Part shown: one piece after another, positions 28,193 through 63,029 of the stretch
Layout: each line of letters opens with the position of its first letter
Position numbering within the stretch: the stretch's first letter is position 1
Origin: an uncultured bacterium
GTDB taxonomy: Bacteria > Patescibacteriota > Minisyncoccia > Phycocordibacterales > GWA1-40-21
DNA: 64,000 nucleotides
Direction of reading: 5' to 3'
Assembly (NCBI GenBank): GCA_903831305.1
Contig: CAIKXE010000004.1
Location: 83,524-147,523, forward strand
Made by a program: the position numbers and the translations under genes
Notes under the pieces: model-generated
Seen by the model: only the letters and a program-made list of their open reading frames with translations
Database searches by the model: none
Told to the model about the DNA's origin: nothing

Positions 28193-28477
28193 ATGATGAG
28201 AAATACTAATTTAAAAAATATAATTCGGGATTGGAAGATTGTGGTCAGTACCTTTGCCGTTCTTTTGATTATTGTATCAGCCCTAGCCTGGAAAGTGTAT
28301 TTGAGCCGGGAGATAGGTGGGGGATTCTTCTCAAGAGCAGAGGTGCCTACCGACACACAGGAGGTGACCATGGATAGTAAGAGACTAAAAGCCGATCTAT
28401 TAATCATGGAAACTAAACAGGCGGATTTTGTTAAAGTAAAAGCCACGCGCTCCCGCCTAGTTGACCCCTCGCTCTAA
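28193..28477 (+). CDS. small bitopic membrane protein, possible PilP-like
   Basis: operon position only. Confidence 0.3.
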   Translation: MMRNTNLKNIIRDWKIVVSTFAVLLIIVSALAWKVYLSREIGGGFFSRAEVPTDTQEVTMDSKRLKADLLIMETKQADFVKVKATRSRLVDPSL

Positions 28478-28506
28478 AACTGTTATATTCAGCAGGTCTG
28501 ATCCAT

Positions 28507-28578
28507 GCCCTCGTAGTTCAATGGATAGAACAAAGCTCTTCTAAGGCTTTGATGTTGGTTCGATTCCAACCGAGGGCA
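28507..28578 (+). tRNA. tRNA-Arg (anticodon UCU)
   Basis: acceptor GCCCTCG/CGAGGGC, anticodon stem AAGCT/GGCTT loop CTTCTAA, T arm GTTGG-TTCGATT-CCAAC. Confidence 0.8.
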
Positions 28579-28719
28579 CAATAAAAAGTACTCTTTTTTA
28601 TTGTGCCCGAGAGCAGGCATGGGTATGCCTGCGTGTTGGAATCGAAGCCTGTTTGAGATTTTTTAGAATTTCCGAATGAATAAAAAATCCAAACACGGAT
28701 ACTGTTCTCGTAGAGAAAG

Positions 28720-28739
28720 ATATCCAACCGAGGGCACCA
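28720..28739 (+). repeat. direct repeat of the tRNA-Arg(UCU) 3' end (gatATCCAACCGAGGGCAcc)
   Basis: matches 28561-28579 (GATTCCAACCGAGGGCACA) 140 nt upstream. Confidence 0.5.
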
Positions 28740-28800
28740 GAATAAAAGTATCTATTGTCTACTTTTTGATAAGAACGGAAAAAAATGATATATTTATCCG

Positions 28801-29676
28801 GTGGATATTGTTCCCCAACTCATTGTAAATAGTCTCATTGCTGGATCACTCTATGCCTTGGTAGCTTTGGGTTTCAATTTTATTTATGGAGCAACCCGTT
28901 TTTTCAACTTGGCGCACGGGGCTATCGCCGTGGCGGGAGGCTATATAGTGTACTTCTTTACAAAAATGCTCGGCTGGTCAGCTATACCGTCCATCATTAT
29001 TGGTCTACTTGTTGCTGGGTTGTTAGGTTATTTATCTGAACGTTTTATCTACCGCCCCCTTCGAGCCCGTAAAAGCTCACACATGGTTCTTCTGGTAGCT
29101 TCCTTGGGTGTATTGACCGCCCTCCAAGCCATAATTGCTATGCTCTTTACTAGCCAGTTTCAGACCCTGGGCCAGATGGATAGTGTGAACCGAACTTTCA
29201 ATATCTTTGGTGGCGTGATCACGCAAATACAGCTGATTATGTTTATCTCTGTGGTGGTGGTGATGGTGGGCCTGGCCGTGATTTTGAAATTTACTTTTTT
29301 TGGCAAATCGGTTCGGGCTATCAGTGACGATGAAGAAGTGGCCAGGATGGTGGGGATAAACACTAATCAAGTAATCGGTATTGTTTTTTTTATTGGTTCA
29401 GCCTTGGCGGGTCTCTCCGGGATACTTTCGGGCTATGATACCGGACTGGAGCCCACTATGGGTATGAGCTTGCTTTTGAAAGGGGTTATTGCTTCTATTA
29501 TCGGCGGTATTGGCAATGTGTATGGGGGAGTGCTTGGGGCCTTCCTTCTAGGTTTTGTAGAAAATTTCGGCATCTGGAAAATTTCCGGTGAGTGGAAAGA
29601 TGCTATTGCCTTTGGTCTCCTCATCATTTTCCTCCTGCTCAGACCCAATGGTATTTTAGGTCAAAAGCGGTCATAG
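28801..29676 (+). CDS. livH: branched-chain amino acid ABC transporter permease (LivH-like)
   Basis: 8 TM, conserved permease loop; near AGGYIVYFF. Confidence 0.8.
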   Translation: MDIVPQLIVNSLIAGSLYALVALGFNFIYGATRFFNLAHGAIAVAGGYIVYFFTKMLGWSAIPSIIIGLLVAGLLGYLSERFIYRPLRARKSSHMVLLVASLGVLTALQAIIAMLFTSQFQTLGQMDSVNRTFNIFGGVITQIQLIMFISVVVVMVGLAVILKFTFFGKSVRAISDDEEVARMVGINTNQVIGIVFFIGSALAGLSGILSGYDTGLEPTMGMSLLLKGVIASIIGGIGNVYGGVLGAFLLGFVENFGIWKISGEWKDAIAFGLLIIFLLLRPNGILGQKRS

Positions 29677-29681
29677 TCTAG

Positions 29682-30494
29682 CTAATCTTTTAGTTGTTTA
29701 GAGTCCCAAGAGAGTTCAAAAATAGTTTTCATCATGTCATGTATGGCCTGATCCTCGATGATTACGCCAGTCTCATGATCCTTCTTGAAGTTAGTTATAG
29801 CTACTTTATTTGTTCCATATATTGTAATTTCTGAGGCGGAAGGAAATTTTCCCTTTTTTACAAATCGCATTTCTGGCCAAAACTTTTTATCCACATTACC
29901 ATAAAATATTTCTCTTGATTCTCTATCTTCTTTAGTATCTGGTAAAATAATGCGAGTGGTTATTCCGTTTTTGGTTTTTCTTTCTGTGTAGGATTTGAAT
30001 AAATCCTTATTGTCGGCATCAAGAAAGTTTGTAAACTCCTTACCGTTGGTGAAGTTTAACATTTCATATGGTTTCTGATTAGTGACCATATCGTCAAAGA
30101 TGTCAAAGAAGCCCTTTTTACCAGAATAATAAGTAATTTTTGCTTGGTCTTGGTTTGACGAGTAGATATTTTTTATATTTGGCAAGATTTCGGTTATCTC
30201 ACTAACAGATTCTTCTACTTGATGAAGTCTTGATTTAGTAAATTTTAAAACATTTTCCGGTTTTTCTATCTGGTAGTATATTTTATCCTTATTCATTATT
30301 TCATTGACGAGACCTTTTATGGATAGCGAGGTCAAAATATTATATGCGGTTGATCGCCGTATCCCTGCGTATTTGGCGATTCGGGAAGGGAAGGCTTCCC
30401 TCAGTTCCAGAACAGAAACGTATACCAGAGACTCTTTGTCAGTCAGGCCAGACTTCATTAGTTTTTTTATTAGCCCGATATTCTTTATTTCCAT
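29682..30494 (-). CDS. TrmB-family transcriptional regulator (paralog 1)
   Basis: wHTH LTDKESLVYVSVLELREAFPSRIAKYAGIRRSTAY; divergent to SBP gene. Confidence 0.7.
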   Translation of the reverse strand: MEIKNIGLIKKLMKSGLTDKESLVYVSVLELREAFPSRIAKYAGIRRSTAYNILTSLSIKGLVNEIMNKDKIYYQIEKPENVLKFTKSRLHQVEESVSEITEILPNIKNIYSSNQDQAKITYYSGKKGFFDIFDDMVTNQKPYEMLNFTNGKEFTNFLDADNKDLFKSYTERKTKNGITTRIILPDTKEDRESREIFYGNVDKKFWPEMRFVKKGKFPSASEITIYGTNKVAITNFKKDHETGVIIEDQAIHDMMKTIFELSWDSKQLKD

Positions 30495-30689
30495 AGTTTA
30501 ATAGTAACAGATGTGTGTAAACTGTCAATGTAAACCGACAGTCTCTGTATAATTCTACAATAGACTTCTATTTAGTCATATTTATAGTTTGGAGTGTCAA
30601 TCATTACACACATATTCTTAGTATGTGGTAGTCTTTTTGATAGAAGGTCTAGGTTATGACCTTCTATTTTAATCAATAATTTAAAAAAA

Positions 30690-31805
30690 ATGGAAAAAAT
30701 AAATAAGAAATGGTTAGTAAAAATTATTGTTTTGGTTTTAGTTATAATATTTGTCGGTTTAGCTTTTGGAATGACTAGGCCGGTTGCTAATAAATCAGTG
30801 AAAGTTGGGGTAATTTTACCCTTGACTGGGGCCGCCGCTGATTATGGGCAGGCCACAAAAAAGGGTATTATCTTGGCGGTGGCTAAGACTTTGAAGAATG
30901 ACAATATTAATCTGGAAGTTATATATGAAGATAGCCAGGCTGATCCAAAGTTAGCCGTTAGTGCTATGAAAAAATTGGTGAATATTGATAAAGTAAAATA
31001 TGTTATTGGCTTTACTAGCGGGGAAACTTTAGCTATTTGTTCTATCGCGGATACTAATAAGGTTATATTGCTTGGAACTGCCACCAGCCCTGATATCACG
31101 ACGAAGTGCGGGGATTATACTTTTAGGAACTCACCGTCTGATACTTATCAGGGTAAGGTTTTAGCAGACAAGGTTTTTGCTATGGGTTATAAAAATGTTG
31201 CTATTTTTTATATTAACAATGATTACGGAGTTGGTTTGAAAGATAAATTTATAAAGGATTTTGAGGGAACAATTACAAATGTGGAGTCACACAAGCCTAA
31301 TGATACGGACTTTAGAACTCAGCTGATGAAGATAAAAGCAAACAATCCCGAGGCAGTTGTTCTCATTTCCCATCTGGCCGAGGGATCAATAATCCTCAAA
31401 CAGCAGGTGGAGTTAGGGCTGGCCAAGCCTGTATTTTCTTCGGAGTCTTTGAAGGACTCCGCCGTATTCAAGCTTAGTAAGCTTTCATTAGAAAGATTAT
31501 ATATTAGCTTCATTAGCCAATACGAGGGTCCGGAATTTAAGGAGTACAAGGATAGTTATACAAAAGCTTATGGTTCGGAGTTTGGTATCTATTCAGATTA
31601 TCAGTATGATAATATTTTAACTATAGTTAATGCTCTAAAGATTTGTAAAGATGGAAGTGATATTGAGTGTGTAAAGAAAGAAATTTACAGAACTAATATA
31701 ATTGGTGCTACGGGCCGTATAAACTTTGACAGCAATGGTGATCGAGTTGATAAAGATTATTTTCTATATAAGGTACAGGATAATACTTTTGTTCCACTAG
31801 ATTAG
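30690..31805 (+). CDS. ABC transporter substrate-binding protein, Leu/Ile/Val-binding family (SBP-1)
   Basis: N-terminal TM anchor, VKVGVILPLTGAAADYGQ motif. Confidence 0.8.
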   Translation: MEKINKKWLVKIIVLVLVIIFVGLAFGMTRPVANKSVKVGVILPLTGAAADYGQATKKGIILAVAKTLKNDNINLEVIYEDSQADPKLAVSAMKKLVNIDKVKYVIGFTSGETLAICSIADTNKVILLGTATSPDITTKCGDYTFRNSPSDTYQGKVLADKVFAMGYKNVAIFYINNDYGVGLKDKFIKDFEGTITNVESHKPNDTDFRTQLMKIKANNPEAVVLISHLAEGSIILKQQVELGLAKPVFSSESLKDSAVFKLSKLSLERLYISFISQYEGPEFKEYKDSYTKAYGSEFGIYSDYQYDNILTIVNALKICKDGSDIECVKKEIYRTNIIGATGRINFDSNGDRVDKDYFLYKVQDNTFVPLD

Positions 31806-31815
31806 TCTTGCAACC

Positions 31816-32562
31816 TTAATCCTCCGTGGAGATATTCCACAAAATATTGAACAGGGCTAGGATGGTTTGGCTAAACTCGGGGCTCTCAATCACAAAGCCA
31901 AAATTTCCCCTTTCGGTAAAGATGATCGCTACCTTTTGCCCGATGACACAGATGGTATCTGGGATGAAGACCCCTTTAGGGGCATAGCGTATTTCCCGTA
32001 GCATTTCTGTGGCGCCACTGATAAGTGGTTCAGTGGGCTGATCCTCGCGCATACGGACATTTTTTACTTTGATCCTTTTGGCGATTCGGCGCCTGGCATA
32101 ATCCTTGAGGAAGTCATCACCGACGGTTTGCACCCGGGAAGCATTAGAGCTGACGTAATACATGGTTTTACTTCTGGTGGTCAGTGTTTCCTCAAAGATA
32201 TTTTGCATCCCTTTTTGCCCAAAATAATATTTCATCTTTGGTTTTTCTTGGTCCGGTGAGATCATAGCAGACAAAGCGGGGACTACTTGCTCAGCGTATT
32301 TTAAATTATTTTTAGCTTGGCGGATAAAGGCCGTAGGGGATTCTACTTTGTATTGCTTTTTCTTTTCTGTCAGCACCATGGTAATCAAGCCACGTCTGAT
32401 GAGCTCATCTAAGATAAGGTAACAAGTGGGCCTCTTTAGCCCGGATTTGGCCGCCACTTCCAGGACAGTAAAGGACACTAGCTCCAAGGCGGCCAGGTAT
32501 AGCCGGGCTTCCTTGTCACCGAGGCCTAATAGTTCTAATTGTTTCTCCTTTATCATTGCCAC
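31816..32562 (-). CDS. TrmB-family transcriptional regulator (paralog 2)
   Basis: wHTH GDKEARLYLAALELVSFTVLEVAAKSGLKRPTCY. Confidence 0.7.
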   Translation of the reverse strand: MAMIKEKQLELLGLGDKEARLYLAALELVSFTVLEVAAKSGLKRPTCYLILDELIRRGLITMVLTEKKKQYKVESPTAFIRQAKNNLKYAEQVVPALSAMISPDQEKPKMKYYFGQKGMQNIFEETLTTRSKTMYYVSSNASRVQTVGDDFLKDYARRRIAKRIKVKNVRMREDQPTEPLISGATEMLREIRYAPKGVFIPDTICVIGQKVAIIFTERGNFGFVIESPEFSQTILALFNILWNISTED

Positions 32563-32731
32563 CCTATTATAACAGAGCCAAGTATGTTGTCAAATTTATT
32601 GACATTTATCTACATACCTTAATATACGGCTATATGTAAGAATATTATGTAATATATAGTTTAAATTGTTTGACGTATTTTGGTCTTGTGATACAATAAT
32701 TCTGTTAGTTTATTAATTATCAATTAATCAT

Positions 32732-33856
32732 ATGAAAAAAATATACATATATTTAGGTTTAGTTGTTATTGTGCTTGCGGGGGCGGTTATGGTTTCTAGA
32801 AATCAAACCACACTTGGGCCGGTCAAGATCGGCGTTATCGGTCCAGTGACTGGTAGCTCCGCTGGGGTTTATTATGAGCCATTGAAAAAGGGGATTGATA
32901 TTGCTCTGGCGGGGATAAACAAGAGTGGTACTAAATTAGCGGTGGTGTATGAGGATGATCAGCTAGATGGTAAATTATCAGTTTCGGCCTATGCTAAATT
33001 AAAAGCAGAAGGTGTGCGGTACTTTATCCTAAACGGTAGTCCAGCGGCGGCCGCCGTCGCTCCACTGATCAAGGCTGATGGAAACGTGTCCATGGTGCCC
33101 TCAGCCCTCCTGACGGCTTACAAGGATGATAGCCCTCTGACTTGCCGTATTGCTCTGACCGCTGACAATTATGGTCCAGCTTTCACTGATTTGTTCTTAA
33201 ATAAATTAGATAAGAAGCAAATAGTCACCTTGGTTTCAAATACCGAGGGGGCGATGGCTATCTATAATGTATTCAAGGAAAAGTTTGAGGCCGCAGGCGG
33301 GCAGATAGTCCAGGCGGAAACCTTTGGCAAGGATGACATTGATTTCCGTACCCAGATTACTAAAATCAAAGCTAATAAAAAAGCCGAAGCGATTGTGGTT
33401 ATAAACTGGTCAAGCACTATTGTACCTATGCTTACTCAGATAAAAGAACTTGGCCTGACCTTACCGATCTTTGGTGACACGGGGACAATCAAGAATGCGG
33501 CTATCAAGGATTTGACTCTGGCTAACGGAATTACTTTCTTGGACTATTCTTTCACCACTGATGGTAACAATGTTTCAGGCATTGCTCAGAAATTTATCAG
33601 TGATTATGCTTCCTTAAATGGTGGAAGCAAGCCGAGTATCCAAGCCCTCCAAGGTCATGACTCTGTAAGTATCCTGGCTCATGCTCTTGCTCAGGCTGAT
33701 GCTAAGAACCCAACCAGTGTGGCAAACTATATTGTAAATAATATTAAGGATTATGAGCTGGCCGGTGGTAAATTCTCCTTCAACAGTACCTGTGAAGCTG
33801 ATAGAGATATTGCCGTCAGACAAGTGGTAAACGGGGAGATTGTAGATGTAAAATAA
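32732..33856 (+). CDS. ABC transporter substrate-binding protein, Leu/Ile/Val-binding family (SBP-2)
   Basis: VKIGVIGPVTGSSAGVYYE; paralog of SBP-1/3. Confidence 0.8.
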   Translation: MKKIYIYLGLVVIVLAGAVMVSRNQTTLGPVKIGVIGPVTGSSAGVYYEPLKKGIDIALAGINKSGTKLAVVYEDDQLDGKLSVSAYAKLKAEGVRYFILNGSPAAAAVAPLIKADGNVSMVPSALLTAYKDDSPLTCRIALTADNYGPAFTDLFLNKLDKKQIVTLVSNTEGAMAIYNVFKEKFEAAGGQIVQAETFGKDDIDFRTQITKIKANKKAEAIVVINWSSTIVPMLTQIKELGLTLPIFGDTGTIKNAAIKDLTLANGITFLDYSFTTDGNNVSGIAQKFISDYASLNGGSKPSIQALQGHDSVSILAHALAQADAKNPTSVANYIVNNIKDYELAGGKFSFNSTCEADRDIAVRQVVNGEIVDVK

Positions 33857-33878
33857 AGATTATTAATAATTAATCACC

Positions 33879-33908
33879 AAAATAGCCCTAAACCAGGGCT
33901 ATTTTGGT
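33879..33908 (+). terminator. hairpin aaaatagccct-aaacc-agggctatttt
   Basis: perfect 11-bp stem. Confidence 0.65.
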
Positions 33909-33922
33909 GTCAGAAAAAGTGC

Positions 33923-33951
33923 TTGACAAATAGTCCATACTATGCTAGTGT
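33923..33951 (+). promoter_or_regulatory. sigma70-like promoter TTGACA-17-TAGTGT for GC-rich two-gene island
   Basis: hexamers read directly; SD AGGGAG before ATG 34023. Confidence 0.45.
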
Positions 33952-34022
33952 TATAGGTAGATCGATCCACCGTAATTCGCGTCCCATATCGGGGTGCGAC
34001 GGGGATCAAGGGAGATATCGGG

Positions 34023-34394
34023 ATGAAGAAGATCATTGGTATGCTGGTGGCTGTCGCGGTCGTGGCGTTGTTTGCCACGGGGTGCGCGTCGCTCACTCGG
34101 GATCCGAACCGTGGGCGGGGCGTGGAGTATTCGGAGAAGATCCTCCGGCCGACGGGCGACGTCCCGAAGATCGGGACCGTGATCCACGTGATCGCGATTC
34201 TGAATCGGGAGGTGGAGTCTCAGGTCATCTGGACCGAGATGCCCACTGACTACGCCATGTTCCCGAAAGTTCGGGTCATGACGGTCAAGGGGTTTCGCGC
34301 CTGGTCGGAGGGTGTGGGTGACGAGAGAGACTCGTTGTGCATGGTCCAGTACGATAGTGAGACCAGCATACGCCTCATCCTCATGAAGGACTGA
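34023..34394 (+). CDS. lipoprotein (123 aa) in GC-rich island
   Basis: signal peptide plus lipobox LFATGC; GC3-rich codons. Confidence 0.5.
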   Translation: MKKIIGMLVAVAVVALFATGCASLTRDPNRGRGVEYSEKILRPTGDVPKIGTVIHVIAILNREVESQVIWTEMPTDYAMFPKVRVMTVKGFRAWSEGVGDERDSLCMVQYDSETSIRLILMKD

Positions 34395-34564
34395 CCACCC
34401 GAGTTTGTGGGTTAACTCTGACAACTCATATGGTCCTGAGGCGCCATTGTAAAAAGCCTCACTGTCTCACGATGTGTGTCGTGACTGATAAGTCCAAAAG
34501 GACGAAACAGAAAAGTTCTTTGAGAGGTAAGTAAGCGGGGTAAATCCCCAGAAAGAGAGAGACA

Positions 34565-35404
34565 ATGAATACGGAAACGAAGAATGGTCGGCCGGTGAAG
34601 GTTCATTTGGCCATGAGGGACGGTCCAGTTCCCAGGTCGATCAGGCAAGTTCTGCCGATCGTCGGGGATGAGGCCTCCCACACTTACGTGGAGGTCCAAG
34701 CCGAGGCAGACCTCGTCATCTTTGACGAGGTGCGGGAGATCGAACGGGGATACGACAAGGAGAAATCCTACGCGTTCCTGCAGATGCCCGGAGTGAAGGT
34801 TCCGCGTCTGCCGGATAACTGCGAGGTCATCAACCCCCTGCAGATCTTGCCGGGCTTGATCGGGTCCATCAGTAAGGCTCGTTTGAGACTTCCCCCGCCC
34901 GCCATGTCGGCCGTGGAAGAAGAGGAAGAGACGACTGTGTCTTTACTCCCCGACGCCCTGCGTATCCTCGTCATTGAGGATACGCCGCGGCACCAGGCGA
35001 GTGCTAAGCAAGGTCTGGCCGGACACCGACTCATGGTAGCCACGGGGTACGAGGAAGCGATGGAGGTTCTCGGCAACGAGAAGTTCGACGTCGTCCTCAC
35101 GGACCTGCAACTACCCATGTCCTCGCGCACGCTCGGTACCGAAGCGTTCAAGCTCGGTCAGCTGGTGCCTTATGGCCTCATGCTCATGATCGAGGCGGCG
35201 CACCAGGGGGCGAGACATGTGGCGGTCGTCACAGACATGAACCATCACGCGGACTGGCTATCGGCAGCATTCGATCACTTCCGCTACTCGGTGAAAATCG
35301 AGGGAGCGGTCGTGCAGATGATGCACGCGCCGATGAAGCGGGACGCGTCTGGTGAGTCCGTCAAGGACTGGGTCGCCGCCCTTGACCGGCTCCTGAAAGA
35401 GTAG
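34565..35404 (+). CDS. protein with C-terminal CheY-like receiver-type domain (279 aa), GC-rich island
   Basis: LRILVIEDT...DVVLTDLQLPM pattern resembles REC domain; no obvious output domain. Confidence 0.45.
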   Translation: MNTETKNGRPVKVHLAMRDGPVPRSIRQVLPIVGDEASHTYVEVQAEADLVIFDEVREIERGYDKEKSYAFLQMPGVKVPRLPDNCEVINPLQILPGLIGSISKARLRLPPPAMSAVEEEEETTVSLLPDALRILVIEDTPRHQASAKQGLAGHRLMVATGYEEAMEVLGNEKFDVVLTDLQLPMSSRTLGTEAFKLGQLVPYGLMLMIEAAHQGARHVAVVTDMNHHADWLSAAFDHFRYSVKIEGAVVQMMHAPMKRDASGESVKDWVAALDRLLKE

Positions 35405-35470
35405 CTCTTAACCTAAAGCGCGGATATAATCCGCCAAGTGACCTGACATGTTACAGACAACTGTCAACGG

Positions 35471-35505
35471 GCCCGGACTGCAACACGCAGTTCCGGGCCT
35501 TTAAA
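35471..35505 (+). terminator. hairpin ggcccggactgc...gcagttccgggcc plus T run
   Basis: read directly. Confidence 0.55.
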
Positions 35506-35582
35506 CTTGTCTGAATTTCAAAATAAGGTGTGGATTATAAATAAGCGGTCGCGTTCTTATATTCCACCCCTAAACAGGGTTT

Positions 35583-36482
35583 TTGTTTTGGAAAAATTTA
35601 AGGTATAATTTCTCCGTGGAATATTTAATACACCTTGCCATACTCTTTGCTATCTACGTGCCACTGGCGGTGTCACTAAATTTGGTGGTGGGGTATACTG
35701 GACTGCTCTCTGTCACTCACGCGGCCTTTTATGGTGTGGGGGCTTATGCCACTACTCTGCTTGTGGTAAATTTTGGTTGGGGCTTTATCCCGGCTTTGCT
35801 TGTGGCCATGATCCTCTCCGGCCTCCTGGCCACTCTCTTTGGCTTGATCCTCAGCCGTTTCCGAGATGATTATTATGCCTTGGTCTCTTTTGGTTTCAAC
35901 ATTATCGTTTACAGTATTTTATTAAACTGGGAGAGCTTGACCCGTGGCCCCCTAGGGATCCCTGGTATTCCTCGGCCAGAAATATTTGGTCTGACTTTTG
36001 ATTCAAATTTATCATTCTTGATTTTAGCCTTGGCTCTGGCTCTCACGGTCTACCTGGTTTCAGCGGGCATTGTAAAATCATCCCTTGGCCGAGTGCTCAA
36101 AGGGATAAGAGAAGATGAAAAGGTGCTCGCTATCTTTGGTTACAATACCGAGGTTTTCAAGCTGGTCATCTTTGGCCTGACCGCGATGATGGCGGGGCTC
36201 GCGGGTGGTCTCTTTGCTACTTATATTACTTTTATTGACCCTTCCACTTTTGGCCTGAATGAAAGTATTTTTATCCTGGCTATGATTATCCTGGGTGGTA
36301 TGGCTAATCTCCGGGGGTCCGTCATCGGCGCTCTGTTCCTAATCCTCCTGCCGGAAATTCTGCGTTTTGTGGGCTTCCCCTCAGACATCGCGGCCCAGAT
36401 GCGCCAAGTGGTGTATGGGGCTCTCTTGGTCTTGCTTATGTTATATCGTCCCCAAGGATTGCTAGGGGAGTATAAACTGTGA
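35583..36482 (+). CDS. livM: branched-chain amino acid ABC transporter permease (LivM-like)
   Basis: multi-TM permease; paralogous to LivH-like gene. Confidence 0.78.
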   Translation: MFWKNLRYNFSVEYLIHLAILFAIYVPLAVSLNLVVGYTGLLSVTHAAFYGVGAYATTLLVVNFGWGFIPALLVAMILSGLLATLFGLILSRFRDDYYALVSFGFNIIVYSILLNWESLTRGPLGIPGIPRPEIFGLTFDSNLSFLILALALALTVYLVSAGIVKSSLGRVLKGIREDEKVLAIFGYNTEVFKLVIFGLTAMMAGLAGGLFATYITFIDPSTFGLNESIFILAMIILGGMANLRGSVIGALFLILLPEILRFVGFPSDIAAQMRQVVYGALLVLLMLYRPQGLLGEYKL

Positions 36483-36526
36483 TATTCTTTAAATAGTAAT
36501 TTATTAATAATTCTTAAAAAAAACTC

Positions 36527-36697
36527 ATGAAAAAGTGGCTTTGGATTGCTCTGATTATCGTGGTGGTGGCTATTATCGGCGCGGGGATGAATAAGGGGAA
36601 GGATACTACAAATATCAAAGTAGGGGCTACCCTCTCTCTTACGGGCAGTTTAGCCTCAATTGGTAAATCAGAAATGATTGCTAGATTGGCAATTTAG
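36527..36697 (+). pseudogene. truncated substrate-binding protein remnant (56 codons: TM anchor + first beta-strand KVGATLSLTGSLASIG)
   Basis: aligns with N-termini of SBP-1/2/3 then stops. Confidence 0.5.
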
Positions 36698-36721
36698 TAA
36701 TTATGTTTGAATTTTATCAAG

Positions 36722-36752
36722 GCAAAAAATCCCTCCCAAACGGGGGATTTTT
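36722..36752 (+). terminator. hairpin aaaatccctccc-aaac-gggggatttt
   Basis: read directly. Confidence 0.55.
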
Positions 36753-36767
36753 TGCTATACTGTATAG

Positions 36768-37520
36768 GTGACTATATTGCGAACACAAAATATTCATAAA
36801 AACTTTGGTGGGGTGAAGGCGGTGGACGGAGTCTCTATTGCTTTCGAGCCGGGGAAAATCACGGGGTTGATAGGGCCGAATGGCTCCGGTAAGTCTACCC
36901 TGATAAACCTTTTGACCGGTATGACTGCCTTTGATAACGGCCTTATTTATATTGGGGAGCATACCCGGCTGGATCATATACACCCTTATGACTTGCCAGA
37001 CTTTGGCATCACCCGGACCTTTCAGGATATCCGCCTGTTTGAACAGATGCCGGTTTTAGATAATATCTTGATTGTGATTACTTCCCGGAATGTGCTCGGC
37101 GCCCTTTTTGAAAAGCATAAAAAGTATCATTTAGATATTGCGGAGAAGGTGCTCCGGCAAGTGGGCTTGTGGGAGAAGAGAGACTGTTTGGCTCATGATT
37201 TGTCATATGGGCAGAGAAAGCTTTTGGAGATTGCTCGGGTACTTGCCCTAAATGAAGATGGTGGTGAGGTGCTCCACACTATTTTATTTGACGAACCGTT
37301 TGCTGGCCTATTTCCGGAGATGATAAAGATCGTTTCAGAGACCCTGTGCCTCCTGCGGTCTCAAGGCAAGACGGTGGTACTGGTGGAGCATAATATGGAT
37401 ATTATCCGGGAATTATCTGATCACGTTATCGTTCTGGATAGTGGCCAGGTGATAGCCGAGGGGACACCGGCCCACGCCCTCTCTCAGGCGAGCGTCATCG
37501 AGGCGTATTTGGGAAAATAG
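36768..37520 (+). CDS. livG: branched-chain amino acid ABC transporter ATP-binding protein (LivG-like), GTG start
   Basis: Walker A GPNGSGKST, signature LSYGQRKLLEIA, Walker B ILFDEP. Confidence 0.85.
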   Translation: MTILRTQNIHKNFGGVKAVDGVSIAFEPGKITGLIGPNGSGKSTLINLLTGMTAFDNGLIYIGEHTRLDHIHPYDLPDFGITRTFQDIRLFEQMPVLDNILIVITSRNVLGALFEKHKKYHLDIAEKVLRQVGLWEKRDCLAHDLSYGQRKLLEIARVLALNEDGGEVLHTILFDEPFAGLFPEMIKIVSETLCLLRSQGKTVVLVEHNMDIIRELSDHVIVLDSGQVIAEGTPAHALSQASVIEAYLGK

Positions 37521-37521
37521 T

Positions 37522-38262
37522 TTATTTCTCCTCAGGGATCATCTCCCACATCACTTCAAATATTTGTTTTATGGCATCATGGATTTTTGAACTTTCAATT
37601 ATTATTCCCAGGCGGTCATCATAGTTTAAAATAGCCGTTTTATTTTTACCATACAAGAGTATCTCATTCTCCAGATTAAACTTTTTAGAATCCAAGGTCC
37701 GAGATTTGCGTAACTGCTCGCTATTTTTGAGAATATACGGTTTTAGCTCCTGGCTGTCTGGTAGGATAGCGCGGATCCAGATGTTTTTCTTTTGCCTTTC
37801 CGGAATATAATATTTTTCCTGAAAGGATTCACTACCAACTGAAGAGGAAGCGGAGAACCAGGATTGGATCTCTTGGTTTGGAGTAGAAAGTGTTTCTCGG
37901 TAGGCCTCCTTTATGCCATCTTCACCTTCAAAATACCGGACAGACGGTTTTTTATCAATCGCTGATCCCAGGGATAAAAGGCTGGCCATATTTTGTTCCA
38001 GTTCTTTTTTATTTTCATCCAGGATCGCTAGAATCACTTTAGGGCTCTGAGCATTATAATATTTCAAATTCCGCCTTTCTGATTGACTGACCAATCCCTT
38101 TTTTATCAAGTTTTCAAGCTCCATATAAGTAGTGGGCCTTTTTATGCCGGACTTTTGGGCAATGCGGGAAGCGGTGGTTTCTCCAAGCTCATAACTGGCT
38201 AGGTAAACTGAGGCCTCCTTAGGGGAGAGGCCAGCCTTAATCAAGGTGTCTAAATGGTTCAT
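37522..38262 (-). CDS. TrmB-family transcriptional regulator (paralog 3)
   Basis: wHTH LSPKEASVYLASYELGETTASRIAQKSGIKRPTTY. Confidence 0.7.
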   Translation of the reverse strand: MNHLDTLIKAGLSPKEASVYLASYELGETTASRIAQKSGIKRPTTYMELENLIKKGLVSQSERRNLKYYNAQSPKVILAILDENKKELEQNMASLLSLGSAIDKKPSVRYFEGEDGIKEAYRETLSTPNQEIQSWFSASSSVGSESFQEKYYIPERQKKNIWIRAILPDSQELKPYILKNSEQLRKSRTLDSKKFNLENEILLYGKNKTAILNYDDRLGIIIESSKIHDAIKQIFEVMWEMIPEEK

Positions 38263-38482
38263 AATTTATTTTAAATATTACTTTGTCAGTAAAATTGACA
38301 ACAGTGTAATAATAGTAATCTTCTATTAGTTTGTCAAGAATAATAAGGATATTTATTAACACGCTCATTTTCATAAAGTGTCAATTTGTATGACTATGTT
38401 GTTATATATTCTCTAGAGTGTATAATATATGGAGATATAAGGTTAATCCTTTTATTTTATTAGTAGTTAATTTTTAAAAAAT

Positions 38483-39607
38483 ATGGAACAAGCAAAAAAG
38501 AGTTGGTGGGTTGTGGGAGTTGTGATATTAATTGTTTTAATTATTATTGTGGTTATTTCTACTAAAAAACCCACAGAGACTGGGCCAATTAAGATTGGTT
38601 TTGTGGCCCCCCTTACTGGGGATGCTGGTGGTATAGGGCAGAGTATAAAGCAAGCGGCTGAGCTAGCGGTGTCTGAAATAAATATGGCCGGTGGTATCAA
38701 TGGGCAAATGGTTACCTTGTTATCAGAGGATGGTAAATGTGACGGTAAGGAGGCAGTAACGGCGGTGACCAAGCTTATCAATGTGGATAAAGTGGGGGTG
38801 ATAGTTGGTGGGGCTTGTTCCTCTGAAACGGTGGCTTCAGCTCCGATCGCGGAGAAGGCCAAGGTGGTGATGCTCTCACCTCTTTCTTCTAGTCCAGCTC
38901 TGACAACGGCAGGAGACTATATCTTCAGGGACTATCCGTCTGACTCCTTTCAGGGAGTAAAGGCGGCGGAATTTGCGGTGAACACCTTGAATGCTAAAAA
39001 GATTGCTATTCTGTCTTGTGTGGATGATTGGTGTCAGGGGGTGGCTCAGGTTTTCAAAGCTAAAGCTATTGCCTTGGGGGCGAGCCTGGTCAGTGAAGAA
39101 AAGTATGAGAAAAGTTCTACTGACCTAAAGACGCAGTTGACCAAGATAAAAGCGGCTAATCCAGACCTGGTATATTTTCTGGGTTATACAGATGGAACTG
39201 TTGTGGGTTTAAAGCAAGCCAAAGAACTAGGCTTGCAAGCTAAAATACTTGGTGGTGATGCGTGGAATGATCCTAAGATTGTGGCCAGTGTTGGTTTGGC
39301 TGCTGAGGGGATAGTCTATCTGGTCCCGACCTCGTTTAAGAATGCTTCATTTGAAACGGCGATGGTAAAAGTAAATGGTGGCAAGGAGATAACCATCGGT
39401 TCAAAGGAATCATATGATGCGGTGAAGATTCTGGCGCAGGTGATGCAGAAAGTCGGTACGGATAGTACCAAGGTAAAGAATGCTTTATACGAGGTCAAGA
39501 ATTATCAAGGAGTGTCTGGCAGTATTTCTTTCGATAAGAATGGAGATATTAGCAGTTCAAGTTATGATGTTAAAGTGATTAAGGGAGGTGTTGCAGTAAA
39601 CTACTAG
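38483..39607 (+). CDS. ABC transporter substrate-binding protein, Leu/Ile/Val-binding family (SBP-3)
   Basis: IKIGFVAPLTGDAGGIGQ; paralog of SBP-1/2. Confidence 0.8.
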   Translation: MEQAKKSWWVVGVVILIVLIIIVVISTKKPTETGPIKIGFVAPLTGDAGGIGQSIKQAAELAVSEINMAGGINGQMVTLLSEDGKCDGKEAVTAVTKLINVDKVGVIVGGACSSETVASAPIAEKAKVVMLSPLSSSPALTTAGDYIFRDYPSDSFQGVKAAEFAVNTLNAKKIAILSCVDDWCQGVAQVFKAKAIALGASLVSEEKYEKSSTDLKTQLTKIKAANPDLVYFLGYTDGTVVGLKQAKELGLQAKILGGDAWNDPKIVASVGLAAEGIVYLVPTSFKNASFETAMVKVNGGKEITIGSKESYDAVKILAQVMQKVGTDSTKVKNALYEVKNYQGVSGSISFDKNGDISSSSYDVKVIKGGVAVNY

Positions 39608-45498: not shown

Positions 45499-45822
45499 GT
45501 GTTTTTTAAAAAAATGAATTTAATGAGCATTAAAAAGATAGTTTACGTTATTTTAACTATCATCTTTGGTCAGCTGATCAGCCTCTTGGCTTATGAAATA
45601 TCTTTGGCCGAATACATAAAGGCTATGTTATACCAAAATATTACCGTCAGTAATTATTTGGGTATTTTTTATAACCCGGCTGACGTTCATACTTTTTGGA
45701 TTTTTATTGGCTTTGGTTCCGTGTTTGGTTTTTTTCTTGGTTTGCATTGGTGGCGTATGGTCTATGTGGAGCACAAATACTGGAGAAAACCAGTAAGCAC
45801 CCCAGACCCTTTTCAGAAATAG
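45499..45822 (+). CDS. small membrane protein (107 aa)
   Basis: 2-3 TM helices; no motif. Confidence 0.35.
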   Translation: MFFKKMNLMSIKKIVYVILTIIFGQLISLLAYEISLAEYIKAMLYQNITVSNYLGIFYNPADVHTFWIFIGFGSVFGFFLGLHWWRMVYVEHKYWRKPVSTPDPFQK

Positions 45823-61015: not shown

Positions 61016-61528
61016 TTATAACTTTTCAATCACCATGGTTAGTCCTTTCAACCCTTTTTTAGGACTCTCCGCCACTTTATATTTCTCAGTGATTAATTTC
61101 AAAATTCGATCTAACCTTTCATTTAAAAACTTGAAGTCCATATACTTGGCCCGGCCCGTGATGAATAAATCAATCTTTATTCGGTGACCTTCGGCCAGCC
61201 ACTCGGAAGCTTTTTTGGCTTTGAGCTGTAAATCATGCTCGTCCGTGGCTATCTTGACCTGTAAACTCTTGGTTTCAATGGTCTTGATCTTGGTTTTGGC
61301 TTCTTTATGCTTCTTCTTCTCGTCATACTGATACTTACCAAAGTCCGTAATCTTGCAAATTGGCGGAACAATATTGGGTGATATCTCTACCAAATCCAAG
61401 CCAAACTCCTGGGCCTTAGCCAAAGCGTTTTGCAAGGGGAGTACCCCGAAGTTTTCACCGGCCGGGCCGATTACTCGTAGTTCCGGAGACTTTATTTGAT
61501 GATTTATTCTGATTTTAATATTGCTCAA
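61016..61528 (-). CDS. infC: translation initiation factor IF-3 (TTG start)
   Basis: N- and C-domains; non-ATG start is typical for infC autoregulation. Confidence 0.9.
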   Translation of the reverse strand: MSNIKIRINHQIKSPELRVIGPAGENFGVLPLQNALAKAQEFGLDLVEISPNIVPPICKITDFGKYQYDEKKKHKEAKTKIKTIETKSLQVKIATDEHDLQLKAKKASEWLAEGHRIKIDLFITGRAKYMDFKFLNERLDRILKLITEKYKVAESPKKGLKGLTMVIEKL

Positions 61529-61597
61529 CTTATTTGTAACAGTTATTTGAGAGACTTAGTTATAGCATTTTTTCCTTTTTTGGGCAAGTATTTTGGG

Positions 61598-61624
61598 CGA
61601 GTCGGGTGGAGATGGGCGAAACTC
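61598..61624 (-). repeat. degenerate direct repeat of the tmRNA 3' end (GGTGGAGATGGGCGaaactcgaccc)
   Basis: shares TGGAGATGGGCG with 61795-61806; T-arm degenerated. Confidence 0.45.
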
Positions 61625-61794
61625 GACCCTTACAGGGTCAGTACCCGTGTTTGGATTTTTTATTCTCCTTCGAAAGACTCAGGATCTAAAAAATCTCAAA
61701 CAGGCTTCGCTTCCGCCCCGTAAGCAAAATCATTTGCTTACTCATCTCCACATAACAAAAATCGCCCATCAGAATGAGCGGGTTTTTGTACATG

Positions 61795-62208
61795 TGGAGA
61801 TGGGCGGAATCGAACCGCCGTGCATAAGAGTATCCTAATTGCTTCTACAAAGTCTAGTTAATTTATCTTCACTTGCGTGAATTTAAGTCTGTGATTTCAA
61901 AAAGAACAAAATGATCACAAACCGATCCTCTAATTTCTTTCCGTACCGAGAAAATTACGGAATATAATCTAATTTTATGTCACCCAGACCAGTTTATTAG
62001 ATATGGACTGATTGGATGCCGCTTAGGTTTGTTTTATGAAACGTAAGCGAAAGCAAAGTTGTTGGCCGCAAAATATGGGGACACAACAGACTTTACTCTT
62101 GAAACAATGCTATTAGCAGTTGTTTGTTTATTAACATTTTAGGTGTGTATAATAATGCACCACTTTGCGCAATCAAGGACAGATCAGATGTCTAGGCCGA
62201 TCATCCCC
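61795..62208 (-). ncRNA. ssrA: tmRNA (ssrA), ~414 nt
   Basis: 5' GGGGATG pairs with 3' CATCTCC-A; 3' T arm GGCGG-TTCGATT-CCGCC; smpB 0.4 kb away. Confidence 0.6.
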
Positions 62209-62301
62209 CTAAAACATTTTATCGGATAAAATGTTCGGGCGACCAATTTTAGGAAAAATTGGTTTAGCCCAAAAACATTATCTTTAAAATATCTAGTCAT
62301 A

Positions 62302-62574
62302 TTATAAAGTATGACCTATTTTATTTATATATTCATTTAGAATTTTTCTTTTCTCTCTAGCACCCCAGAGACTTTTTAAAAATCTTTCTTTGTTAAACGC
62401 AGCAGTTTTGCTTGGGGCTTCTTCTAAATGAATTCTTACTAAAGGACGTCTATTTTTCGTGGTAAGTACTTTTCCAGAATTATGTTCTTCTAGTCTTTGG
62501 TCTGGATTTTGTGTACATCCAACATATAGGCGATTATCTTTTTTGCTTAGTAAAATATAAACAAAATAGGGCAT
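62302..62574 (-). CDS. GIY-YIG nuclease family protein (90 aa, YhbQ-like)
   Basis: FVYIL...LYVGCT...R..EHN motif set. Confidence 0.75.
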   Translation of the reverse strand: MPYFVYILLSKKDNRLYVGCTQNPDQRLEEHNSGKVLTTKNRRPLVRIHLEEAPSKTAAFNKERFLKSLWGAREKRKILNEYINKIGHTL

Positions 62575-62579
62575 ACTTA

Positions 62580-63029
62580 TTATTCATTTTTCAAAGTGCG
62601 GCGTATATCACGATCTGTCTCGCGTTTCTTGATAGTCTCGCGTTTATCAAAGCTCTTTTTACCCTTGGCAATACCGAGTTCTAGCTTGAGCTTTCTACCT
62701 GTATTATACACCGCTATAGCCACAATTGTCAAGCCTTTCTTGTTTTCAATCTCAGTCAGCTGTTTGATCTCTTTTTTGGTCAATAAAATCTTTCGATTTC
62801 GGAGAGGGTCGTAATCAGCAGGAGTATTAGTGGCCTGATAGGCGGGGATATTGGCGCCAATGAGGAAGGCTTCTCCACCGCGGACCGTGACATAAGCGCC
62901 ATCGAGCTGACCCTTTTTCCCCCGCACACTCTTTACCTCCAAGCCTAAAAGCTCTAGCCCGGCGGTAAATTTGTCCGTGATTTCATAGTTAAAGTATGCT
63001 TTTTTATTTTGTAGTAAACTTTCACTCAT
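62580..63029 (-). CDS. smpB: SsrA-binding protein SmpB
   Basis: KAYFNYEI..., C-terminal basic tail; canonical SmpB. Confidence 0.92.
   Translation of the reverse strand: MSESLLQNKKAYFNYEITDKFTAGLELLGLEVKSVRGKKGQLDGAYVTVRGGEAFLIGANIPAYQATNTPADYDPLRNRKILLTKKEIKQLTEIENKKGLTIVAIAVYNTGRKLKLELGIAKGKKSFDKRETIKKRETDRDIRRTLKNE

Follow-up and report, generated by a model that had tools for sequence, protein, structure and literature searches.

Genes for transfer RNA (tRNA) and transfer-messenger RNA (tmRNA) are classic landing sites of genomic islands, and the elements known to us at such t(m)RNA genes are kilobase-sized and encode their own integrase. In Williams' sublocation scheme, elements of tyrosine integrases reportedly have an identity block that extends from the T-loop or the 3' strand of the T-stem to the end of the t(m)RNA gene. 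The islands found at ssrA, the tmRNA gene, of Dehalococcoides cross over in or near the T-loop, carry 20-bp repeats of the ssrA 3' end and accrete in tandem; some of them are integrase-less and "cis-mobilizable", and a conserved motif lies just upstream of each repeat (McMurdie et al., 2011, PMC3146451). Here we analyse the ssrA locus of an uncultured patescibacterium within a stretch of 64,000 nucleotides (nt), referred to as the window (contig CAIKXE010000004.1 of assembly GCA_903831305.1, positions 83,524 to 147,523 of the forward strand). A direct repeat that copies the 3' end of ssrA lies downstream of the gene and had been taken for an integrase scar in an earlier sequence-only reading. 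The ~190 bp between the repeats are a conserved structured module and not decayed island DNA. On balance, the repeat is probably the distal edge of a ~190-bp gene-less, non-autonomous insertion module specific for t(m)RNA 3' ends, belonging to a family which is found at ssrA, tRNA-Arg(UCU) and tRNA-Ile(UAU) in Patescibacteria (Candidate Phyla Radiation, CPR).

The ssrA gene at 61792-62208 (minus strand) is a complete, standard one-piece tmRNA gene, recognised by the full Rfam model RF00023 with 98.2 bits (gathering score 47, E=4e-37, model positions 1-374). Its acceptor stem and T arm can be read from the sequence: 5' GGGGATG (62208-62202) pairs with CATCTCC (61802-61796), including G3:U70, and the T arm is GGCGG-TTCGATT-CCGCC (61819-61803). 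The discriminator A at 61795 is followed by C-A-T, so CCA is not fully encoded. Copy A (61794..61814, minus strand, read directly) comprises the T-loop, the 3' strands of the T-stem and acceptor, A73 and C74 of the tmRNA and is the source sequence of two further copies, B and C. Copy C (61606..61621, minus strand) is the direct repeat: the 13-nt CGCCCATCTCCAC occurs exactly at 61606-61618 and 61794-61806, 188 nt apart, and the longer alignment of 61606-61621 with 61794-61809 is identical at 15 of 16 positions. These are the only exact copies of CGCCCATCTCCAC in the 64 kb, with ~0.002 expected for a given 13-mer by simple arithmetic. When up to two mismatches were allowed, five matches were obtained against 0.73 expected, a number reached in none of 100 shuffles. 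Thus the repeat announced by the sequence-only reading is real and not due to chance, and it withstands exact alignment, although the first copy had been placed 6 nt too low (61601-61612; TGGAGATGGGCG is really at 61607-61618) while the second was placed correctly (61795-61806). The tmRNA that it had proposed on the minus strand near 61795-62208 is borne out as well.

An inverted copy of the ssrA 3' end, B (61706-61753), escaped that reading; it is located between A and C. B is split into B1 (ATGTGGAGATG; 61743..61753, minus strand), complementary to the acceptor 3' strand and the first trailer bases (inverted repeat, 11/11), and B2 (GGGGCGGAAGCGAA; 61706..61719, minus strand), complementary to the T-stem 3' strand and the T-loop (12/13 at 61706-61718). 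The 22-nt hairpin 1 (61720..61742, minus strand), which folds into 9 bp with a 4-nt loop, divides B exactly between the acceptor complement and the T-stem complement. The intrinsic terminator of ssrA (61753..61780, minus strand; terminator scan and fold) has a 7-bp stem, a TCTG loop and a T-run and constitutes the tip of a 60-nt near-perfect hairpin (61743-61802) formed by A and B1. B2 is followed by the P2 long hairpin core (61645..61705, minus strand), defined by its identity with the tRNA-Arg unit described below and by outer-stem covariation, and by a GUACUG motif with the P3 hairpin GACCC-UGUAA-GGGUC (61625..61644, minus strand), defined by covariation in 9 units. B can alternatively pair with C, which closes a fold that holds three internal hairpins (hairpin 1, P2 and P3); this B-to-C region folds with -65.6 kcal/mol (z = -6.25). 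There is no open reading frame (ORF) in the 190 bp between the repeats, just the terminator and hairpins and no cargo genes. Searches with B-C units against Rfam 15 (E <= 10; 61400-62700, 28450-28850 and six other unit-bearing loci) returned nothing meaningful.

As a control, the ordinary tRNA genes of the window were tested for downstream copies of their own ends, and such copies were found behind tRNA-Arg(UCU) (28507..28579, plus strand; ARAGORN, Rfam 71.4 bits). Comparison with the ssrA unit identified a paralogous unit at 28580..28737 on the plus strand. It starts with its own terminator hairpin, followed by B1 GTGCCCGAG (28603-28611), a hairpin 1 different from that of the ssrA unit (28612-28632), B2 GTTGGAATCGAA complementary to the T-loop and T-stem of this very tRNA (28635-28646), the P2 core (28647-28698), ATACTG with a P3 that also differs from its ssrA counterpart (28699-28717), and copy C CCAACCGAGGGCAC (28724-28737), which repeats 14 nt of the tRNA 3' end exactly. 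Between the ssrA and tRNA-Arg units, both 21-nt strands of the P2 stem show 100% identity, each core 21-mer having exactly 2 copies in the window versus 0 expected; a third core-like match (45719-45739) sits inside an apparent coding region and was dismissed as chance. The genome has at least two units with identical core stems and gene-specific arms.

The same architecture was detected behind tRNA-Ile(UAU) in L003, L010 and L019 by an ARAGORN-based scan of 205 sequences, with arms matching that tRNA's own end (L numbers denote the loci or contigs of relatives and metagenomes compared with the window). Behind ssrA it is present in L006, L013, L023, L026 and L027, and a signature scan of metagenome contigs gave ~28 further genuine cases; overall, ~32 modules are located behind ssrA in Patescibacteria. 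The units are gene-less, ~130-250 bp in size, and always lie immediately after the host RNA gene on its strand, with an intrinsic terminator and its T-run preceding B in every unit. They occur in only ~20% of related ssrA loci, and none was seen in the non-CPR loci among those compared. Tandem units are found in L086, L088, L099, L108 and L117, while in L085, L156, L160 and L183 the units were displaced from ssrA by later insertions. Hairpin 1 of the tRNA-Ile unit in L019 is identical to that of the ssrA unit in L013, P3 of the tRNA-Ile unit in L003 is identical to that of the ssrA unit in L006, and L089 and L156 have the same hairpin 1. Since hairpin-1 alleles are common to otherwise different units, recombinational replacement rather than drift is indicated. 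The modules duplicate the 3' strand of their target, occur in tandem, are patchily distributed and exchange sub-modules.

Conservation of the module concerns its structure. In hairpin 1, double changes affect 8 of the 9 pairs among 17 units; pairing is retained in 99.3% of cells, a level attained by 0 of 500 shuffles. Five helices (P1a, hairpin 1, P1b, the P2 outer stem and P3) were found by RNAalifold in nine units of the window type, where 17 of 31 pairs are compensatory; in the same nine units the P2 outer stem covaries, as do all five pairs of P3, none of them broken. Conserved motifs include CUGC in 22 of 32 hairpin-1 loops, the GUACYG linker and a GUA loop in P3 of 17 of 31 units. In 21 of 21 units at ssrA, representing five T-stem variants, B2 fits the T-stem of the ssrA that it follows. 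Copy C is intact in 10 of 31 units, whereas about two thirds have a degenerate or truncated C. A, terminator and B together form nearly perfect palindromic hairpins of 25-32 bp, in which compensatory changes extend to the non-genic trailer. In 11 of 12 units the better fold is that of the tmRNA-sense strand, and the ratio of helix-interior G.U pairs to A.C mismatches is 35:2 on the sense strand and 22:7 in the antisense control; this is moderate evidence that one strand matters, while total G.U counts (23 vs 16) differ too little to favour either strand. The genes downstream of the units vary and are often antisense, so the module is not a leader of a particular gene. An L20 leader or riboswitch upstream of infC was also considered and rejected: there is no Rfam match, infC has a promoter-like site of its own, and the downstream genes are varied or antisense. 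Literature searches retrieved ssrA islands, cis-mobilizable elements and tmRNA introns and no description of the module.

Comparison with orthologous empty sites shows the units to be discrete ~170-190-bp insertions that duplicate roughly tRNA positions 61-74. The empty tRNA-Ile sites of L012 and L014 run directly from the tRNA into the end of a convergent ftsH, and the filled site of L003 has a ~168-bp unit (terminator and tRNA 3'-strand copy) and then the same flank. At ssrA, copy C of the window is followed by the junction to conserved host DNA (61559..61605, minus strand), whose CCGACTCGCC resembles the sequence located directly after ssrA in L007 and L009; likewise, the sequence after C in L006 is the one directly following ssrA in L008 and L015. 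A recurrent short module AAATAAG.A.CG.AG.G.CTATATTTTTGTAGGA..CCGC... is located directly after ssrA in L008 (5890-5937) and L015 (5988-6090), where part of it is repeated, and after copy C in L006 (6232-6300). The L143 unit (oriented minus; B at 3033, C at 3184) combines an inverted arm of the CTCAC-type T-stem with a direct repeat of the CCGCC type, the mismatch that, as far as B and C alone are compared, a donor-derived arm beside a recipient-derived repeat would produce.

The view of this site as an integration hot spot is supported by several kinds of insertions in relatives. L160 has a single-gene cassette, one NYN-domain gene between ssrA and an exact 14-nt repeat. L085 has a 541-aa large serine recombinase gene on the reverse strand after ssrA, its last codons overlapping the ssrA 3' end, followed by a MerR-like gene, a type II restriction-modification pair and then, 6.9 kb away, a unit with terminator and B. 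Homologues of this recombinase are encoded directly beside ssrA in L005 and close to it in L011; the tmRNA of L005 is ~85% identical to that of the window and shares its 3' end. The recombinase frames of L085 (5674-7299, plus strand, locus coordinates) and L005 (1981-3624, minus strand) run antisense across the island/ssrA junction, and their last ~12-23 codons (...VEMGGIEPP...) result from reading the tmRNA 3' end in antisense, so the C-terminus of the recombinase would change on excision. The junction of the serine recombinase islands seems to lie at the extreme 3' end, with CTCCACAT as its 8-nt repeat (L009, L183). For the larger gaps in L003, L004, L005, L007, L009 and L011, no distal direct repeats were found at up to 3 mismatches of 14. 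A LOOT RNA (RF03000, 84 bits) is located at 6334-6448 of L005, ~4.3 kb downstream of ssrA and beyond the serine recombinase island. In L085, tRNA-Ile(UAU) (12871-12945, minus strand) has two further copies of its 3' part downstream, at +45 (whole T arm) and +263, both without an inverted arm, which suggests a different, more classical att repeat in the same genomes. Contigs of many relatives break at or just after ssrA, e.g., L001 (ending at the tmRNA 3' end), L008 and L083; L012 and L014, from the same metagenome-assembled genome, both end inside ssrA, giving one such genome with two contigs that each have smpB-ssrA. These breaks are consistent with strain-level heterogeneity at a hot spot.

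Each module of the family consists of four parts in this order: (i) a trailer with an intrinsic, apparently bidirectional terminator for the host RNA gene; (ii) an inverted copy of the last ~21-25 nt of the host gene (T-loop to C74 plus trailer), split by the covarying hairpin exactly at the acceptor/T-stem junction; (iii) a long hairpin and one or two shorter ones, with motifs conserved in loops and linkers; and (iv) a direct copy of host gene positions ~61-74. We infer that a circular or cassette-like intermediate enters by Campbell-type recombination within the T-loop-to-C74 identity block, catalysed by a recombinase acting in trans or by homologous recombination over this block. Insertion would restore the RNA gene, supply it with a new terminator and leave the displaced end as the direct repeat, so that the modules may work like extremely reduced integrase-less cis-mobilizable islands. 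The inverted arm presumably works as a folded strand. Its pairing with C could produce a mimic of the host acceptor/T-stem minihelix that masks the pseudo-3' end in read-through transcripts; alternatively, B could pair with the true 3' end (A) into a ~45-bp hairpin. The inverted arm and the hairpins may mask the pseudo-end, form a mimic of the tRNA top half or be a recognition structure for the insertion machinery.

Several observations weigh against an insertion module of this kind. No recombinase was detected among 20 mid-size ORFs of the window by Pfam or in the window by tblastn with the L085 serine recombinase. Ten ORFs beside units, inspected by eye, look like a methylase, polymerase IV, a peptidase and the like, with no recombinase among them. 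The serine recombinases of the relatives are not obviously the mobilizing enzyme, as their islands use a different junction. Neither an excised circle, nor population polymorphism, nor a copy of the unit on a viral contig was seen. The Campbell/att model needs no inverted arm, and arm and hairpins are left unexplained by this model alone. The terminator between A and B of the window is homologous to one located directly after ssrA in L004, which fits an element-borne terminator less well (the homologous terminator of L009 comes after another, incomplete ssrA 3'-end copy, located ~1.7 kb downstream of the gene). The metagenome units were ascertained via an intact B arm, and the better preservation of B than of C is therefore partly a sampling effect. 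Hairpin 1 (0 of 153 cells) and P3 contain no G.U pairs, which is atypical of a drifting RNA helix.

A variant of insertion would give the arms a more active role. The split inverted arm (B1/B2) could be a guide, either RNA or folded single-stranded DNA, that pairs with the 3' strand of the t(m)RNA gene or with its transcript and directs insertion right after position 74, or else both arm and repeat could be templated from the 3' end of the host RNA at each insertion, much as the retroviral primer-binding site is recopied from the tRNA primer. We find this doubtful; guide or target-templated arms would, however, explain how one conserved core comes with arms matching ssrA, tRNA-Arg(UCU) or tRNA-Ile(UAU). 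A less doubtful, though still rather unlikely, explanation is that the module functions mainly as a structured RNA which extends pre-t(m)RNA at the 3' end and has spread by duplication, in which case the direct repeat would be a structural strand and not a scar. tRNA-processing enzymes, e.g., RNase P, RNase Z and the CCA-adding enzyme, could recognise the top-half mimic formed by B and C, with hairpin 1 in place of the lower arms, and the mimic could thereby serve to punctuate or insulate the transcript, or B could sequester an unterminated 3' end for degradation. Strong helix covariation, the conserved CUGC, GUA triloop and GUACYG, the sense-strand bias in folding and in G.U versus A.C counts, and the constant position of the unit immediately after the host RNA gene on its strand all agree with such a function. 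Moreover, the hairpin at the exact acceptor/T-stem junction reproduces the helix order of a tRNA-like domain, and the units repeatedly give sub-threshold matches (24-29 bits, below the gathering score of 47) to the junction model of the permuted tmRNA. Since a T-run terminator precedes B in every unit, however, most transcripts should stop before the structure and only read-through would contain B. Degeneration or truncation of C in about two thirds of the ascertained units also speaks against an RNA function, and the units are dispensable, as they are absent from most related ssrA loci and from orthologous tRNA-Ile loci. The mimic has A3:U70 instead of G3:U70 and would not be alanylated, and lack of G.U pairs in hairpin 1 and P3 is again unfavourable.

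The remaining explanations deny the module a function or bring in another agent. An ordinary integration scar, i.e., an integrase-bearing island or prophage deleted down to a meaningless remnant of ~190 bp, has only a slim chance in our opinion. The repeat does span the classic identity block from the T-stem 3' strand to the ssrA 3' end, the same site is taken by large serine recombinase islands or by cassettes in relatives, attP-like fragments starting in the T-loop are present in viral contigs, and Dehalococcoides ssrA islands leave 20-bp repeats (PMC3146451). Yet the architecture is conserved and covarying in more than 30 loci at three host genes, which largely refutes a scar: the target is present in the remnant as an inverted copy, the core shares 2 x 21 nt at 100% identity with the tRNA-Arg copy in the same window, different islands decaying at random would not arrive at one common structure, and a single recent deletion in one lineage is contradicted by the spread over hosts with 52-85% SmpB identity. 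The sequence-only reading is supported as to a target of integration and not as to the simple scar of an integrase-bearing island. Phage origin was considered separately and rejected: viral contigs hold ssrA 3' ends and a few attP-like fragments and no genuine unit. We likewise hold it very improbable that the unit is a non-functional by-product of replication, in which template switching at the terminator hairpin (quasi-palindrome extension or correction) makes B, a second fold-back makes C, and perfect Watson-Crick arms are kept mechanically. The near-perfect palindromes with compensatory changes reaching into the non-genic trailer, the hairpins free of G.U pairs, and the way B tracks A over T-stem variants without obvious need speak for such a process. 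Left unexplained by it are the homology of cores and the hairpin-1 and P3 alleles and loop motifs common to different genes and genomes, as well as the clean ~170-bp insertion with a new terminator, the empty sites of L012 and L014 having no hairpin for a fold-back; identical 21-mers and shared modules indicate common ancestry of the units. Least probable of all is that the small GIY-YIG gene next to ssrA (see below) encodes a free-standing homing endonuclease that cuts near the ssrA 3' end, repair then copying cassettes or the unit from filled alleles. Such genes flank ssrA on either side in at least 12 CPR loci, the gene is present in a single copy in the window, and 4 of the 5 smpB-GIY-YIG-ssrA loci with readable downstream sequence carry a unit (phylogeny not corrected for), but the 90-aa protein is a bare catalytic domain without a DNA-binding domain, and units without a GIY-YIG neighbour are found in L006, in most metagenome loci and at the tRNA-Arg and tRNA-Ile sites. 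The insertion module thus remains the explanation we prefer.

The surroundings of ssrA agree with the sequence-only reading in that smpB is close and a GIY-YIG gene lies between them. smpB (62580..63029, minus strand) codes for a 149-aa SmpB matched over its full length by PF01668 (162.5 bits), whose relatives place the organism among the Patescibacteria (Paceibacteria-like), with the window matching the ENA contig k141_397281. The GIY-YIG gene (62302..62574, minus strand) codes for a 90-aa protein matched by PF01541 at residues 3-72 (57.4 bits). The same gene order is found in L013 (2595-2864), L002 (5458-5724), L023 (4351-4620), L010 (5463-5726) and L144 (1025-1279), and the small (~90 aa) GIY-YIG gene is located just downstream of ssrA in L009 (4568-4831), L003 (5186-5446), L029 (6046-6300), L022 (6108-6341) and L018 (4251-4508). 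In L003, L009 and L143 the downstream gene is preceded by a conserved hairpin-rich module, TCGACTCG...GAGTCGAGTGTCCCGAG...CTCGAGGGAC, and together they look like a separate selfish cassette favouring the neighbourhood of ssrA. The GIY-YIG gene is a separate recurrent neighbour of ssrA, and nothing ties it to the repeat.

Within ssrA, the Rfam alignment places the resume codon GCU at 62117-62115, and the tag stop is TAA at 62036-62034. The tag frame, A-NSIVSRVKSVVSPYFAANNFAFAYVS (ANSIVSRVKSVVSPYFAANNFAFAYVS plus the TAA stop; 62034..62117, minus strand), and its core ...VVSPYF..FAFAY.. are conserved among tmRNAs of 15 relatives. At 27 aa the tag is unusually long, and its ending is of the FAFAY type. 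Of the two programs suggested for confirming the tmRNA, Rfam recognised it and ARAGORN missed it, reporting 7 tRNAs and no tmRNA in the window, which is a failure of the tool and not counter-evidence. ssrA of this clade may go unannotated in ARAGORN-based pipelines. A role of ssrA as a carrier of a group I intron in the T-loop was rejected, as the gene is whole without splicing and a permissive Rfam search gave no intron match. Downstream of ssrA, infC (IF-3; 61016..61528, minus strand; Pfam) is followed by rpmI and rplT. A sigma-70-like candidate promoter of infC, TTGCCC-17-TATAAC, read by eye, follows CCGACTCGCC within 61559..61605, and the block upstream of infC is conserved in L003, L004 and L007 from ~61594 downwards. 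The gap between ssrA and infC varies among relatives from 0.26 kb in the window to 3.3 kb in L004. Directly after the tRNA-Arg unit, the window contains a branched-chain amino-acid ABC (ATP-binding cassette) transporter gene cluster (28801-39607) with three paralogous periplasmic binding proteins (30690-31805, 32732-33856 and 38483-39607) and two permease genes (28801-29676 and 35583-36482), an exceptionally large outlay for a reduced genome.

Provided that they are mobile, the modules would be smaller than any other site-specific element known to us at t(m)RNA genes, and the fit of their arms to the target would suggest a principle of recognition that can be retargeted. Modules acting as RNA would instead represent an unrecognised class of 3' trailers which mimic or mask the top half of the neighbouring tRNA or tmRNA. 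In both cases, the modules account for assembly breaks and for hypervariability beside ssrA in these genomes, show that "duplicated tRNA ends" are not always integrase scars, and provide a concrete, searchable signature.

Among short repeats, the units resemble miniature inverted-repeat transposable elements (MITEs) and further small non-autonomous elements, e.g., Correia elements, Rickettsia palindromic elements (RPE) and repetitive extragenic palindromes or bacterial interspersed mosaic elements (REP/BIME), in being short, gene-less, structured, multi-copy, patchily distributed and intergenic beside terminators. MITEs have mutually matching terminal inverted repeats and a short target duplication of fixed length. 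A MITE derived from a DDE transposon was rejected, since the inverted copy of the unit is internal and matches the host gene, and the duplication comprises 13-21 nt of the gene's 3' strand. Like integron attC cassettes, the units may be viewed as tandem arrays of small units at a fixed site, with hairpins of the recombination site conserved while the sequence is variable. The direct-inverted-direct order (A...B-loop-C) corresponds in topology to integrated CTX-type phage with its folded attP, by analogy at least. Unlike integrons and CTX, the units have neither an IntI or Xer context (no IntI-like gene was present among the 20 window ORFs scanned) nor an R-box consensus, and their arms are t(m)RNA 3' ends. 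The junction of the permuted tmRNA (RF04321) is similar in its order of T-arm, acceptor 3' strand, short spacer and a 5' acceptor-like strand, GGAGAUGA. Identification with it was rejected for the window, where the match has 25.4 bits against a gathering score of 47 and covers just the junction region; unlike in the permuted tmRNA, the downstream piece has no coding or pseudoknot parts and ssrA is complete.

As with tyrosine-integrase elements at t(m)RNA genes, insertion would make the gene whole again and leave its displaced end behind as a direct repeat, but the units have no integrase and no cargo and are two orders of magnitude smaller. We know of no att site with a split, full-length inverted copy of the identity block. 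Of the features of an integrase-borne island, the units share the 3'-end direct repeat and have neither an integrase inside the element nor cargo, whereas those of a cis-mobilizable element, bounds formed by target repeats and an empty site in relatives, are present both at ssrA and at tRNA-Ile. The serine recombinase islands of relatives differ from the units in their junction and short repeat. By analogy, the Dehalococcoides ssrA islands, including their integrase-less members, appear to be the closest described system (PMC3146451). Both insert at ssrA, both have 3'-end direct repeats (20 bp there, 13-21 bp here) and accrete in tandem, and a ~540-aa serine recombinase on the reverse strand directly beside ssrA is found in relatives of the window as well. 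Unlike those islands, the units described here are gene-less; their ~130-250 bp comprise a core of several covarying hairpins and, inside the element, the target in inverted copy, and the same family also occupies tRNA-Arg and tRNA-Ile with its arms re-matched to each of these genes.

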